A DNA stretch of 64,000 bases. Source: Bacteriovoracia bacterium. GTDB lineage: Bacteria; Bdellovibrionota; UBA1018; CAIPTA01. Positions within the stretch are counted from its first letter, which is position 1, and each line of letters starts with the position of its first letter. The notes under the pieces were generated by a model. That model did not search any database. It was not told the DNA's origin and was given only the letters and a program-made list of their open reading frames with translations. The stretch is taken from the NCBI GenBank assembly GCA_050246755.1, contig JBFWVL010000001.1, positions 320,001-384,000 on the forward strand, given 5' to 3'. A program made the translations under genes and the position numbers. Of this stretch, positions 33,506-44,549 are shown piece after piece.

Positions 33506-34276
33506 CTATTTAGCGAGAAACTCCACCTTACCCAATTGATCGAACGTGGCACTCACCGTATCGCCCGCACGAAAAGCCACGGCCGCGGTGGCGCCGCCCG
33601 CGAGCACGATGGATCCGGCCGGCAAAGATTCGCCCATGGCGCCCAGTAGCTTCACGAGCTCCAGCAGCGAAAGCAGGGGATTCCCCAGAATGGCGGCCGA
33701 AGACCCCTTTTGCGCGGCCGCTCCATTTTTTTCGAGCGTGATACCGATATTTTTTAGTTCGAGTTCCCCCGGTTTTTTCCTTACCGTACCGAGCACGAAG
33801 GCCGAGGAGGAGCAGTTGTCGGCCACCACGTCGGGCAGGGCGAAATCAAAATTCTCGAAACGAGAATCAATCACTTCGATCGCCCCGCATACGCTCTCGA
33901 TCGCCGCAATGGCTTCGGCTTCGGAAGGATTGCCATGCAGCTCTTTACCCATCACGAAGGCAATCTCGGGTTCGGCCTTAGGATGAATTCTTCTTCCGAG
34001 CGTGAGCGTCGCGCCGCTCGCTATTTGCATGCGGTCGGTGAGGAAGCCGTGGATAGGGCTATCAATTCCCATTTGCTCCATCTTGGGCTTGGAGGTCATT
34101 CCCATCTTGCGGCCAACGATCCGCGCGCCGCCTTTGAGGTGAAGGGCCATGAGCAAGCGCTGCACTTCGTAGCCCTGACCGAGCGAAAAACTCGGCTCTT
34201 CCACCGTAAACTTAATTACGGACTTTCCCGTTTGCTCCGCCGCGAACAATATTCCCGCGATTTCTTGCGCCTTCAT
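33506..34276 (-). CDS. dmpH: 4-oxalocrotonate (2-oxo-3-hexenedioate) decarboxylase
   Basis: FAH family; KMGMTSKPKMEQMG, IHPKAEPEIAF, EVIDSRF, DVVADNCSS. Confidence 0.85.
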   Translation of the reverse strand: MKAQEIAGILFAAEQTGKSVIKFTVEEPSFSLGQGYEVQRLLMALHLKGGARIVGRKMGMTSKPKMEQMGIDSPIHGFLTDRMQIASGATLTLGRRIHPKAEPEIAFVMGKELHGNPSEAEAIAAIESVCGAIEVIDSRFENFDFALPDVVADNCSSSAFVLGTVRKKPGELELKNIGITLEKNGAAAQKGSSAAILGNPLLSLLELVKLLGAMGESLPAGSIVLAGGATAAVAFRAGDTVSATFDQLGKVEFLAK

Positions 34277-34277
34277 T

Positions 34278-35057
34278 CTATTCTCCAAAAAAACAGTGCA
34301 CGTTTCCGAGACCAGCGATTTCCACGTCTACCCTATCGCCCGCCTTCACCGGCATCACCGGCCCAAAGGCGCCGGAAAGAATCACTTCACCGGCTTTCAG
34401 TGCCACCCCGAATTTTCCGAGCGCATTCGCAAGCCAGGCCACCGCCAGGCAAGGGTGATCGAGGCAAGCCGCGCCGGTGCCGGTGGAAAGAATTTCCCCG
34501 TTAATTTTCAGGCTCATCTTGGCGAGGGTTAAATCCAGGGAGGAAAGCGAATGCTTTTCCGTGCCCAGCACAAAGTGCGAAGAAGAGGCGTTGTCGGCGA
34601 TCGTGTCCTGGATCTTGATTTTCCAGTCGCGCACGCGGGAATCAATGATCTCGATCGAGGGAAGAATATAGTCCGTTGCGTGGATCACATCCTGCATCGT
34701 TATGCCGGGGCCTATCAAGTCGCTCTTGAGCACGAAGGCCACCTCGCCCTCCACCCGGGGCAAAAGGAGCTTGGCGCGGGAAAGGCTTCCGCCCGAGGAA
34801 ATCTTCATGTCGGAAGTGAGGTAGCCGAAATCGGGCTCTTCCACGCCCAATTGTTTCTGCACTGCCCTAGAAGTAAGGCCGATTTTCTTCCCCACGAGGG
34901 TCAGGCCTTCTTGCTCGAGGCGGCGCTTGAGGTTAATCTCGGACACGGAGTAGGCGTTGCCGATCGTGATTCCGGGAAACTGGGCGGTGAGCGGTTCCAC
35001 CGGCGAGGCCGAGAGGCGGGCCTGAAAAAGGGCGTCAGCTAAGGAAGTAAGATTCAT
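34278..35057 (-). CDS. mhpD: 2-oxopent-4-enoate (2-keto-4-pentenoate) hydratase
   Basis: GKKIGLTS.AVQKQLGV.EPDFG, EIIDSR, DTIADNAS, AVAWLAN. Confidence 0.9.
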   Translation of the reverse strand: MNLTSLADALFQARLSASPVEPLTAQFPGITIGNAYSVSEINLKRRLEQEGLTLVGKKIGLTSRAVQKQLGVEEPDFGYLTSDMKISSGGSLSRAKLLLPRVEGEVAFVLKSDLIGPGITMQDVIHATDYILPSIEIIDSRVRDWKIKIQDTIADNASSSHFVLGTEKHSLSSLDLTLAKMSLKINGEILSTGTGAACLDHPCLAVAWLANALGKFGVALKAGEVILSGAFGPVMPVKAGDRVDVEIAGLGNVHCFFGE

Positions 35058-35107
35058 CTTCCCCCACTCTAGTGTCAGGCCAGCGTGATTTCAAGAAGGG
35101 ATACTCG

Positions 35108-41610: not shown

Positions 41611-41746
41611 AGCGCGGTAAATCTCGCGCATGGAAAATTTTCTTCTGCGAACTCACTTACTTAGTATTTAACGCAAGGCTTCTACAGCGCTGCAAGTAAT
41701 CTAGCGTCACTATTCCTTTTCCTCTCCTTCAGGTAAAGTGCTCTCC

Positions 41747-42646
41747 ATGGCCGAAAAAGGAAAAATCGTCGCCGGGGTTTTAGCCCCCCACCCGCCCCAC
41801 CTCGTGTACGGGGAAAATCCAAAACAGAACGAGCCGCGCTCGGAATGCGGCTGGGAAAATTTACGCTGGGCCTATGAGCGCTGCCGGAAGAATATCCTCG
41901 CGCTAAAACCCGACGTACTGCTCGTACATTCTCCTCACTGGATGACGATGGTGGGCCACCACGTGCTCGGCGTGGAAAAATTCAAGGGCCTCTCGGTGGA
42001 TCCGATTTTCCCCCACCTCTTTCGCTATAACTACGACCTGAAAGTAGATGTGGAGCTTTCCCTCGAGATCGCCAAGCAAATCGAAGCCCAAGGCATGATC
42101 ACGAAGGTGATGAAGAATCCTGATTTCCGCATCGACTACGGAACGATTTGCTCCCTCCATCTCATCAATCCGGCCTGGGATATTCCAATCGTCTCGATTT
42201 CTTCCAATAATTCTCCCTATTATTTCTCTAACGAAGTAGGCCAGGAGCAGATGATGAAGCTTGGCCAGGCCACGAAGCACGCGATCGAGAAAACCGGGCG
42301 CCGCGCGGTGCTGCTTGCGTCGAATTCCCTCTCGCACCGCCACTTTACGAGCGAGCCCGAAATTCCTGAAGACATGAGCTTTGAACACGTCTACCACCAC
42401 GGGCAATACCTGTGGGACATGCAGATGATCAAGCTCATGCGCGAAGGCCGCGCCAAGGAATTGCTCGCCGTGCTCCCGGAGTTCATCGATATGGCCTCGG
42501 CCGAAGTGAAAGCCGGCGCGCTCGCCTGGATGCTCTCGGCGCTCGACGTGCCCACCTACCCCGGCATCGTGCACGGCTACGGTTCCGTGATCGGCACCGG
42601 CAACGCGGTGGTGGAATGGAACCAAGAAACGAGGGGCGCGCAATGA
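41747..42646 (+). CDS. amnB: 2-aminophenol 1,6-dioxygenase beta (catalytic) subunit
   Basis: [43 protein letters not shown], typical of AmnB/CnbCb. Confidence 0.93.
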
Positions 42647-43917
42647 TCGTAAAAGCCCTGGTGGTGCCCGGTCACCCGCAAATCCTTCTCAGTCCCGAGC
42701 AAAATCCCGGCTGGAAAAAACTCCACGCTGCCTACGCCGAGGCCAGGAAAGAAATCGAATCCACCGAGGCCGATTTGATTCTCTACTACTCCACCCAGTG
42801 GCTCTCGGTGCTCGGCTATACTTTCCAAACCGATCCCAATCCAGAATGGGTGCACGTGGACCAAAACTTCCACGATCTCGGCTCCATGCCCTACAAATTC
42901 AAATGCGACGTGGAATTCGCCAAAGCCTACGCTGCCGAGGTAAAAGCCGCCGGCCACCACACCATGCTGGCGAACTACCGCGGATTCCCGATCGATACGG
43001 GCACCATCGTGGCCCAGAAACTGCTGAACCCGAATAACCGCTTACCCGCCGCCATGGTGAGCTGCAATATGTACGCGGAAAAAAATGAGACGATCGAGCT
43101 AGGCCGCGCGGGCTTGCGTGCGCTCGAGAAATCGGGCAAACGCGCCGTGGTGGTTTTGGTCTCGGCGCTCTCGAATCGCTACTTCGTGAAAGAGATCGCG
43201 GCGAAAGACGATCGTATTTCTTCGGCCAAGGACGACGAGTGGAACCGCAAGATCGTGGAGCTCCTCGGCGAAGGCCGCCTCGAAGATACCGCGCAAGTAG
43301 CCCGCGATTTTGGCCGCGAAGCCAACGGCGATATGGGCTTCAAAGGAATCTGGTGGCTCGACGGGATCTGCGGCGAGACGAACGAGTTTTCGGGCAAAGT
43401 TTTCGGCTACGAACCCGTGTGGGGAACCGGCGCCACCCTCGTTTCCCTGAGCCCCAAGGGAAAAGTGAAATCCGTTCCCCTGGCACCCAAAGAAACGAAA
43501 AGCGAAAACCAAATCGTGGATGCCGCCAAAGCCCCCGAACCCGTGGGCGCCTATCCCCACGCGCGCCGCGAAGGAGAATTCCTGTTTCTCTCGGGCGTAG
43601 GGCCCCGCGAACGCGGAAAAAAAGAGATTCCCGGAGTGAAGCTCGATAGCAGTGGACAAATCCTTTCCTACGATGTGGAAATACAGACCCGCTCAGTGAT
43701 CGCCAACGTGAAAACCATCCTCGAAGCTTCCGGATCTTCCCTCGATAAAATCGTGGACGTGCAGGTTTTTCTCACCGACATGAAGAAAGATTTCCCCACG
43801 TTCAATAAAATCTACGCGGAGCACTTCGCGAAAATCCAAGCCACCCGCACCACGATCGAAGTGGGATCCCTGCCCACGCCGATCGCCGTGGAATTCAAAG
43901 TGATTGCGCGCGTATGA
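42643..43917 (+). CDS. amnA: fusion of 2-aminophenol 1,6-dioxygenase alpha subunit and RidA-family 2-aminomuconate deaminase
   Basis: N-terminal [30 protein letters not shown]-terminal [42 protein letters not shown]. One continuous frame. Confidence 0.88.
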
Positions 43918-44549
43918 AGATTTGGGACATCAGCCCGGTGATTTCCGAGAAGACGGCCGTATTTCCCGGCGACGTGCCTTTTTCCCGCGAAGTTTCGATG
44001 GACACGAAAAAAGGCCACCACCTCACCCTCTCGGCCATTCGTTCCACGCTGCATATCGGCGCGCACGCCGACGCCGGCAATCATTATCATAAAGAGGGAA
44101 AAGGCGTGGAGGCGCGGCCCCTCGAATCCTACCTGGGCGACTGTGAAGTGATCGCCGTAAAGCTTCCCCGTGGTGCCCGTATCGGAATCGAGCATTTGAA
44201 CGGAAGAATCCCGCTCGCCCCCCGCGTGCTCTTCAAAACAAATTCTTTTCCCGATCCCGATCAATGGAACAATGATTTCAATTCTCTCTCGCCCGAGCTG
44301 ATCGAGTTCCTCGCCGACCGCGGCGCTATGCTCGTGGGTATCGACACTCCGAGCGTAGATCCCGTGGATTCCAAAGCCCTCGAAAGCCACCAGGCGCTGC
44401 ACCGCAGAAATCTCGCCGTGCTCGAGGGAATCACGCTGGAACAGGTAACGGAAGGCGTGTACACCCTGGTCGCTTTGCCGCTGCGAATGAAAGACGCTGA
44501 CGCTTCGCCGGTTCGTGCTATCCTTATAAACAAAGAAACGTTGTTGTGA
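43914..44549 (+). CDS. kynB: kynurenine formamidase (cyclase family)
   Basis: WDISP...VFPGD, HIGAHADA..H, GIDTPSVD, LEG, DASPVRA. Confidence 0.93.
   Translation: MKIWDISPVISEKTAVFPGDVPFSREVSMDTKKGHHLTLSAIRSTLHIGAHADAGNHYHKEGKGVEARPLESYLGDCEVIAVKLPRGARIGIEHLNGRIPLAPRVLFKTNSFPDPDQWNNDFNSLSPELIEFLADRGAMLVGIDTPSVDPVDSKALESHQALHRRNLAVLEGITLEQVTEGVYTLVALPLRMKDADASPVRAILINKETLL

Follow-up and report, generated by a model that had tools for sequence, protein, structure and literature searches.

Tryptophan catabolism via kynurenine is textbook metabolism and, to our knowledge, every described aerobic kynurenine branch passes through kynureninase (KynU). The classical enzymes of the pathway from kynurenine to 2-aminomuconate are kynurenine 3-monooxygenase (KMO), KynU, 3-hydroxyanthranilate dioxygenase (3-HAO; HAO where gene orders are given) and ACMSD. 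The amn pathway, which starts from 2-aminophenol, is so far known mainly from degraders of pollutants, for example Pseudomonas sp. AP-3 and Burkholderia xenovorans LB400, the latter with the gene order amnRJBACDFEHG (PMC3790839 and PMC6742747, both in part). Here, genes of both kinds are described from a Bacteriovoracia bacterium (GCA_050246755.1, contig JBFWVL010000001.1, positions 320,001-384,000; these 64,000 nt are referred to as the window). The cluster under study, at window positions 33506-44549, includes kynA and kynB, the genes of a 2-aminophenol 1,6-dioxygenase (AmnB and AmnA, together AmnBA) and two enzymes that belong to neither pathway, a luciferase-like monooxygenase (LLM; 35982-37166, plus strand) and an Asparaginase_II-like hydrolase (AsnII; 38248-39279, plus strand).

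Comparative genomics strongly supports a putative route that has the LLM-AsnII pair at its core and needs no kynureninase, and LLM (with AsnII) and AmnBA probably replace the classical upper pathway. The mechanism as written out below, tryptophan catabolism via Baeyer-Villiger oxidation by LLM and hydrolysis by AsnII, is predicted from sequence and is given a probability of about 0.5; its LLM substrate, Baeyer-Villiger chemistry, AsnII substrate and order of deformylation are those that we infer. KynA would open the indole ring to give N-formylkynurenine. LLM, with reduced FMN and O2, would insert an oxygen into the bond that joins the aryl ring of kynurenine or N-formylkynurenine to its side-chain ketone. 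This would give an ester of the aspartate beta-carboxyl with a 2-aminophenyl (or 2-formamidophenyl) group, of which the free-amine form could shift to N4-(2-hydroxyphenyl)asparagine. AsnII, a Ser-Lys hydrolase, would form a beta-aspartyl-enzyme intermediate, as in asparaginase, and release L-aspartate and 2-aminophenol. Kynurenine can be viewed as an asparagine in which 2-aminophenyl takes the place of the amide NH2; aryl migration would give a beta-aspartyl ester, for which an enzyme that works through a beta-aspartyl-serine intermediate would be a natural catalyst. KynB would remove the formyl group before or after the LLM and AsnII steps, AmnBA would convert 2-aminophenol to 2-aminomuconate semialdehyde, and a dehydrogenase, a RidA-type deaminase, a decarboxylase and a hydratase would lead onward to pyruvate and acetaldehyde.

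The wider reading has LLM as a kynurenine/N-formylkynurenine Baeyer-Villiger monooxygenase and AsnII as a beta-aspartyl-aminophenol hydrolase, which jointly would form a PLP-independent bypass of KMO, kynureninase, 3-HAO and ACMSD, yield aspartate rather than alanine, give the amn enzymes a natural, pre-industrial source of substrate and, where AmnBA is lacking, salvage aspartate. All of this together is put at somewhat less than an even chance. As the first-pass annotation of this stretch had supposed, no description of a route from kynurenine to 2-aminophenol, of a kynurenine Baeyer-Villiger oxygenase, or of a role for LLM or asparaginase II in tryptophan catabolism was found in open-access papers or bioRxiv; a paper on the ARO microcompartment (PMC10470539) contains no mention of kynuren-, tryptophan, luciferase or asparaginase.

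Probable replacement of the classical enzymes

Kynureninase, KMO, 3-HAO and ACMSD are all absent from the window, as first noted from the open reading frames, and a search of the whole genome (3.55 Mb in 10 contigs, 95.69% complete) with models and tblastn agrees. The genome has no match to the kynureninase model TIGR01814, to the 3-HAO model PF06052 or to Amidohydro_2 (PF04909). The positive control for the 3-HAO model also matched nowhere, and tblastn with the HAO of a relative is the better test; with the KMO, KynU, HAO and ACMSD of relatives as queries, tblastn found nothing at E<=1e-3. Two FAD_binding_3 proteins of the genome were considered as KMO and rejected, as they resemble PRK06184-type hydroxylases and squalene monooxygenase. 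A class-V aminotransferase is likewise unsupported as a kynureninase, the kynureninase model having matched nothing.

In family f13, the classical pathway and the LLM cluster occupy the same syntenic place, after guaBA. The order there in locus L103 is RidA-ALDH-HYD-4OD-HAO-ACMSD-kynU-[AsnII.KynB], and in loci L105 and L138 it is AmnB-AmnA-RidA-ALDH-HYD-4OD-LLM-[AsnII.KynB]. In kynU-type relatives that carry HAO-ACMSD-kynU elsewhere in the genome, these genes are followed by an ORF of 456-467 aa in five loci of five, and the one such ORF that was tested is a KMO (E 2.8e-100 to a solved KMO). From the swap and the position of KMO, therefore, LLM and AmnBA stand where KMO, KynU, HAO and ACMSD stand in close relatives. 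The bracketed gene is a fusion, found in the Bdellovibrionota families f13 and f23, of an AsnII-like domain to the N-terminus of KynB (482-555 aa, PF06089 plus PF04199); it adjoins kynA (loci L102-L116, for example L103:10214-11815). This fusion ties the putative AsnII hydrolase to kynurenine metabolism. If N-formylkynurenine were the substrate of LLM, the fusion protein would carry out two consecutive hydrolyses of one molecule, and the tight junction between kynA and LLM in the window would also make sense.

The same gene content and the same products would fit a different division of labour, in which LLM is a non-homologous kynurenine 3-hydroxylase, as its replacement of KMO in the syntenic comparison might suggest, and AsnII, in a retro-Friedel-Crafts cleavage, splits 3-hydroxykynurenine by hydrolysis between ring and carbonyl to give 2-aminophenol and aspartate. 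Aromatic ring hydroxylation is, however, unusual for the luciferase family, and we know of no precedent for hydrolytic aryl-C cleavage by a Ser-Lys hydrolase. In addition, kynU-type genomes that possess both KMO and an AsnII domain would drain 3-hydroxykynurenine to 2-aminophenol, and there is no AmnBA in those genomes. This explanation therefore seems quite unlikely.

The distribution of the genes was compared in an even sample of 151 genomes of Bdellovibrionota, the phylum of the window, and in a sample of 151 Acidobacteriota genomes. In Bdellovibrionota, LLM is present in 18 genomes, kynA in 84, kynureninase in 31 and AmnB in 12. All 18 LLM-positive genomes carry kynA (compared with 84/151 overall) and all 18 carry an AsnII relative; the nine genomes with an LLM of 58-100% identity are the same nine that have an AsnII of 52-100% identity. 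Kynureninase occurs in none of the 18 and in 31 of the other 133. The exclusion also holds inside families, with six LLM and 10 kynU genomes in f13 (n=20) and five and three, respectively, in f20 (n=11). The lack of any overlap among the 84 kynA genomes has a hypergeometric P of 7e-5, a value that ignores kinship and overstates the significance. AmnB is confined to LLM-positive genomes (12/12). In Acidobacteriota, LLM was found in seven of 151 genomes (one split, one a fragment), and the same seven, with no others, have an AsnII at 64-70% identity; kynureninase above the cut-off occurs in 0/7 of these and 20/144 of the others (the 20 including the unpublished G179). Across the 302 sampled genomes, a high-identity AsnII is never seen without LLM. 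The co-occurrence of LLM and AsnII with each other and with kynA, and their avoidance of kynureninase, had been expected from the window alone and are borne out in the samples; the two genes are usually adjacent.

Among the 84 kynA-positive Bdellovibrionota, 18 have LLM, 31 have kynureninase and 35 have neither, so that the putative LLM route accounts for 18/84 and kynureninase for 31/84. The group with neither includes several complete genomes of 3.7-4.0 Mb from genus g68. According to a 2015 study, obligate predators have kynA but not the other genes of the pathway, and an unknown pathway was proposed there (PMC4646340, in part).

Gene neighbourhoods were compared in the best 80 of 236 LLM-encoding stretches from a one-genome-per-species set. 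These 80 loci belong to Bdellovibrionota and Acidobacteriota (Thermoanaerobaculia, Holophagae and Sulfidibacter corallicola), and the dehydrogenase is present in 65, AsnII in 62, AmnB and AmnA in 52 each, RidA in 50, kynB in 15 and kynA in nine. The arrangement in the window is beyond chance: these loci, from two phyla, repeatedly bring together LLM, AsnII, the dehydrogenase, AmnB, AmnA and RidA. AsnII lies directly 3' of LLM in 36/80 and directly 3' of AmnA in 15/80. The 18 loci without AsnII are mostly on short contigs. Where AsnII is missing within 10 kb on each side of LLM, a genome-wide check of five of the six such loci (the sixth, L082, was left out) found AsnII elsewhere in all five genomes, directly after AmnB-AmnA and at 59-65% identity, and no kynureninase above the cut-off in any of the five.

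A further set was obtained by scanning metagenomes with a divergent LLM subgroup. It comprises 50 loci, of which 46 match the LLM of the window (GC 0.40-0.72) and 38 of these 46 have at least 900 nt downstream of LLM. AsnII immediately follows LLM in 35 of the 38, the exceptions being L134 and L135 (which have the same coordinates and matches) and L154. Many of these pairs stand alone, with a 4-bp overlap between the two genes and housekeeping neighbours such as a pseudouridine synthase. The LLM-AsnII pair is the core of the predicted system.

The solitary pairs, many with no kyn gene within 10 kb, and the presence of kynA within the locus in just 9/80 could also be taken to mean that the substrate of LLM and AsnII is unrelated to tryptophan, such as another beta-keto or amide compound, and that their place beside kyn and amn genes reflects co-regulation or hitch-hiking. 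Against this are the presence of kynA in every LLM-positive genome of the Bdellovibrionota sample (18/18), the fusion of AsnII to KynB, and the finding that LLM excludes kynU and replaces it at the syntenic site. A variant, in which alkyl rather than aryl migration gives O-anthraniloyl-serine and then anthranilate and serine, is met by the restriction of AmnB to LLM genomes, which favours 2-aminophenol over anthranilate. An unrelated substrate, or this variant, is very unlikely.

It could be argued, too, that LLM alone makes 2-aminophenol and aspartate, or another C4 product, by ipso-hydroxylation or by Baeyer-Villiger oxidation with spontaneous hydrolysis. AsnII would then have a separate role common to LLM-type and kynU-type clusters, such as the removal of a by-product that arises from N-formylkynurenine or kynurenine, or simple hydrolysis of asparagine. 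The AsnII.KynB fusion in seven kynU-type genomes is in keeping with this, since these genomes retain the domain although they have no LLM to supply a product; the motifs RSxxK, DGCxLP and KEGADG are intact in most of the kynU-type fusions, with a few changes in two g61 sequences. The pairing of the two genes points the other way: they are adjacent in 35/38 divergent metagenome loci, often with the 4-bp overlap, they co-occur in 18/18 and 7/7 genomes of two phyla, and AsnII at high identity is not found without LLM. In a tree of 35 AsnII sequences, comprising LLM-linked forms, KynB-fused forms of LLM-type and kynU-type, and two generic AsnII, a branch with support of 100/99 places all LLM-linked and fused AsnII on one side and the generic pair on the other. 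We regard a separate role for AsnII as unlikely.

Four genomes lack any LigB-family gene and yet have kynA, kynB, LLM and AsnII, namely G110 (locus L076) and three of genus g46 (loci L102, L107 and L112). The first of these is a single contig, 99% complete, in which LLM and AsnII are adjacent. Because LLM and AsnII occur in these four genomes without a LigB-family gene, they show that the LLM-AsnII pair would act before ring cleavage, not after; action of AsnII after ring cleavage was for this reason rejected as the preferred explanation. In its specific form, LLM would hydroxylate kynurenine at C3, AmnBA would cleave 3-hydroxykynurenine, which is itself a substituted 2-aminophenol, and AsnII would hydrolyse the C-C bond of the resulting beta-enaminone to aspartate and 2-aminomuconate semialdehyde. 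The conserved order AmnB-AmnA-AsnII (15/80 loci and the five separate loci) would agree with such a sequence of steps, but AsnII would have no substrate in the four genomes, and the enzymes to which AmnB is very closely related (E 1e-123) have 2-aminophenol itself as their substrate. Of the explanations considered here, this appears the least probable.

LLM and AsnII as candidate enzymes

LLM is a member of a small uncharacterised family. It matches PF00296 at 32.2 bits (cut-off 27.9), over profile positions 1-142 of 314 only; NCBIfam holds no model for it, and among solved proteins phmmer detects no relative. At E<=1e-3 the family amounts to 296 clusters among 1.84 billion representatives, many of them fragments, and the 236 relatives in the one-genome-per-species set come from at least two phyla. 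Source annotations of these relatives are merely 'LLM class flavin-dependent oxidoreductase' or 'luciferase'. A profile built from 22 members (A1) reaches the luciferase alpha chains 8k74 (E 1.1e-5) and 8cbb. An invariant His49, within an E-x-H motif, resembles the active-site His of luciferase and may be its counterpart. One relative (P0005), at 46% identity, is from a Micromonosporaceae bacterium, and look-alike clusters in the ESM Atlas are mostly archaeal (Thermoplasmatota and 'Methanobacteriota'). Another (P0007) is a protein of 1501 aa in which the LLM match covers the first ~207 residues and is accompanied by ApbE-like and glutamine-amidotransferase-like stretches; this may be a fusion or a mis-call.

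AsnII has the class 3 asparaginase fold and the signature of a Ser-Lys hydrolase. It matches PF06089 at 167.5 bits and the Rhizobium etli enzyme ReAIV (8cly) with an E value of 1.3e-15. Essential residues of the related ReAV are Arg47, Ser48, Lys51, Ser80 and Lys263 (PMC12292245, in part). Residues R52, S53, K56, S81 and K243 of AsnII are invariant in an alignment of 18 LLM-linked sequences (A3), so that both Ser-Lys tandems of the class 3 L-asparaginases and the counterpart of Arg47 are present. Its genomic context argues for a substrate other than free L-asparagine. A further AsnII paralogue, of generic type (27% identity), is encoded in the window's genome; ~10 kb separate it from an FAD aromatic hydroxylase of the PRK06184 type, in a region that includes C6:129855-130583 and C6:119270-120286.

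Several observations weigh against the full mechanism. The first concerns the AsnII.KynB fusion, which persists in seven kynureninase-type genomes without LLM; the proposed route leaves the AsnII domain without a substrate there and does not predict that it persists. The AsnII tree does not settle this point. Within the fused clade (97/97), sequences of the LLM type and the kynU type are interleaved, and both of its sister clades are LLM-linked, a topology that fits a retained relic and does not prove one; it is possible that the domain is a relic kept for the sake of the KynB half, which is needed. Second, the zinc site of class 3 enzymes (two Cys and a Lys) is not conserved: the window AsnII has CSGEH where ReAIV has CSGKH (Lys to Glu), and in one AsnII subgroup (5/18 aligned sequences) both zinc Cys are replaced, by Ser and Asp. 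Third, the chemistry of LLM cannot be read from its sequence. The first-pass annotation had pointed to diketocamphane monooxygenases as luciferase-fold enzymes with Baeyer-Villiger activity, but neither phmmer nor profile A1 detects any sequence similarity of LLM to them; profile A1 has six matches at E<=1, to luciferase chains and to two other LLMs, with no diketocamphane monooxygenase among their names. Fourth, no PF01613 flavin reductase is found in the window's genome and none is conserved beside LLM, other reductase families not having been searched, and no DmpG-type aldolase scores above the cut-off in the genome, which leaves the end of the pathway incomplete, other aldolase families likewise not having been searched. 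Finally, kyn genes are seldom close by, with kynA within 10 kb of LLM in just 9/80 loci and kynB in 15/80. The reading of the cluster as a route from kynurenine to 2-aminophenol and aspartate has thus fared unevenly: the tests across genomes came out as it predicts, but the lack of detectable similarity to the diketocamphane enzymes and the AsnII domain of the seven kynU-type genomes speak against it.

Other genes of the cluster

All of the genes that the first-pass annotation named at 33506-44549 are present in the ORF map and family scans, and two junctions that it described were confirmed: the ATG of LLM lies 4 bp past the kynA stop codon, and the 3' end of AsnII shares 4 bp with the TTG start of the dehydrogenase gene at 39276. 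The kynA gene (35108-35977, plus strand) encodes a tryptophan 2,3-dioxygenase of the short bacterial type (289 aa; PF03301, E 1.7e-52; TIGR03036, 274 bits against a cut-off of 390.7). The kynB gene (43914-44549, plus strand) encodes an arylformamidase of the cyclase family (PF04199; TIGR03035, 206.8 bits, narrowly under its cut-off, 223.05). For each protein the named NCBIfam model is the best and sole match, under the equivalog cut-off, and the Pfam domain is clear. Many kynA products of Bdellovibrionota match the model in two stretches inside a frame of 360-400 aa, unlike the short type of the window; theirs is the insert-bearing 'predator' type of kynA that has been described (PMC4646340, in part).

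The dioxygenase genes are adjacent, overlapping by 4 bp, and both subunits are close to solved enzymes, which places AmnBA among the 2-aminophenol 1,6-dioxygenases. AmnB (41738-42646, plus strand; PF02900), the catalytic beta subunit, is homologous over its full length to the beta chains of solved 2-aminophenol and 2-amino-5-chlorophenol 1,6-dioxygenases (3vsg_B, E 1e-123; 8ihg_A, E 8.2e-123). AmnA, the non-catalytic alpha subunit, and the RidA-type 2-aminomuconate deaminase had been listed as separate genes; both are present, but in a single frame of 424 aa (42643-43917, plus strand; PF02900 plus PF01042). Residues 2-268 of this protein correspond to AmnA chains (7txy_A, E 2.7e-57) and residues 296-422 to the 2-aminomuconate deaminase 6izh (E 5e-23), and the two are likewise encoded within one ORF in 30/45 related loci. 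The 2-aminomuconate-6-semialdehyde dehydrogenase (39276-40718, plus strand; PF00171) has the same enzyme as its best solved relatives (E 7e-137). Two genes on the minus strand encode proteins with PF01557 domains: a 4-oxalocrotonate (2-oxo-3-hexenedioate) decarboxylase-like protein of the FAA_hydrolase fold (33506-34288), whose best NCBIfam match is TIGR03218 (dmpH) at 244 bits, short of the 350.55 required of an equivalog, and a 2-oxopent-4-enoate hydratase-like protein (34278-35057), which matches TIGR03220 (dmpE) at 323 bits, below the cut-off of 408.8.

The clustering of kyn and amn genes is real, but it is not uninterrupted, as had been implied, since three passenger genes lie inside it, all on the plus strand. 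The first encodes a secreted SNase-type nuclease (37457-38155; PF00565), which separates LLM from AsnII in just 3/80 loci. The others are a lipoprotein-like ORF (40715-41233) with a signal-peptide-like N-terminus and no match in Pfam or NCBIfam, and a PTH2-type peptidyl-tRNA hydrolase (41230-41610; PF01981, E 3.3e-29); neither was found in any of the 80 related loci. The PTH2 family is typical of archaea and eukaryotes. Directly 3' of kynB, at 44577-44966, is a gene for a small lipoprotein whose C-terminal domain is of the AgmX/PglI type.

Comparison with described systems

The aryl-ketone pathway of Pseudomonas fluorescens ACB uses a single-component FAD/NADPH type I monooxygenase and an esterase from another family, whereas the window offers as candidates an enzyme with the luciferase fold and a hydrolase with the asparaginase fold, which would set free an amino acid as the acid product. 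The logic of the two is the same: in strain ACB the aryl ketone 4-hydroxyacetophenone is converted to an aryl ester, which yields a phenol, there hydroquinone, and an acid before ring cleavage (PMC3727088, in part). For LLM itself, a precedent for FMNH2-dependent Baeyer-Villiger chemistry lies in the luciferase family, which includes type II Baeyer-Villiger monooxygenases (the 2,5- and 3,6-diketocamphane enzymes) and, with bacterial luciferase, shares PF00296 with LLM (PMC8706424, in part). LLM, whose activity is predicted, differs from the diketocamphane enzymes in the lack of detectable similarity reported above. AsnII shares its Pfam family with the class 3 L-asparaginases ReAIV and ReAV of R. 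etli, including the counterparts of Arg47, Ser48-Lys51 and Ser80-Lys263. It is set apart from them by a weak match, by the Lys to Glu change at the zinc site and by membership of a clade of its own with LLM-linked and KynB-fused forms, and its proposed leaving group is aminophenol rather than ammonia. If these assignments are true, two large and poorly annotated enzyme families would each gain a new activity.

In many predatory and soil bacteria, the pair seems to stand in for four enzymes of the classical pathway. This bears on the biology of the obligate predators that have kynA but lack the rest of the pathway (PMC4646340, in part). In small predator genomes without AmnBA, the pair would recover aspartate and set 2-aminophenol free, and the latter might be oxidised to aminophenoxazinone.

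In comparison with the amn pathway of nitrobenzene and aminophenol degraders, AmnB, AmnA, the dehydrogenase and the RidA-type deaminase all have close homologues among the solved Amn/Cnb proteins. The setting is different, in that the amn genes of these predatory and soil lineages stand beside kynA, kynB, LLM and AsnII, with AmnA fused to the deaminase, and the 2-aminophenol would derive from tryptophan, not from a pollutant. This would give the amn genes a natural role. With the classical pathway, as found in relatives (L103 and L118-L122), the cluster has in common the start by KynA and KynB and the lower pathway from 2-aminomuconate semialdehyde; LLM, AsnII and AmnBA are present in place of KMO, KynU, 3-HAO and ACMSD. 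The predicted route would yield aspartate instead of alanine and CO2, and would have neither a PLP-dependent step nor a quinolinate branch. If correct, it would constitute a new branch of tryptophan catabolism, made up of an oxygenase with the luciferase fold and a hydrolase with the asparaginase fold.

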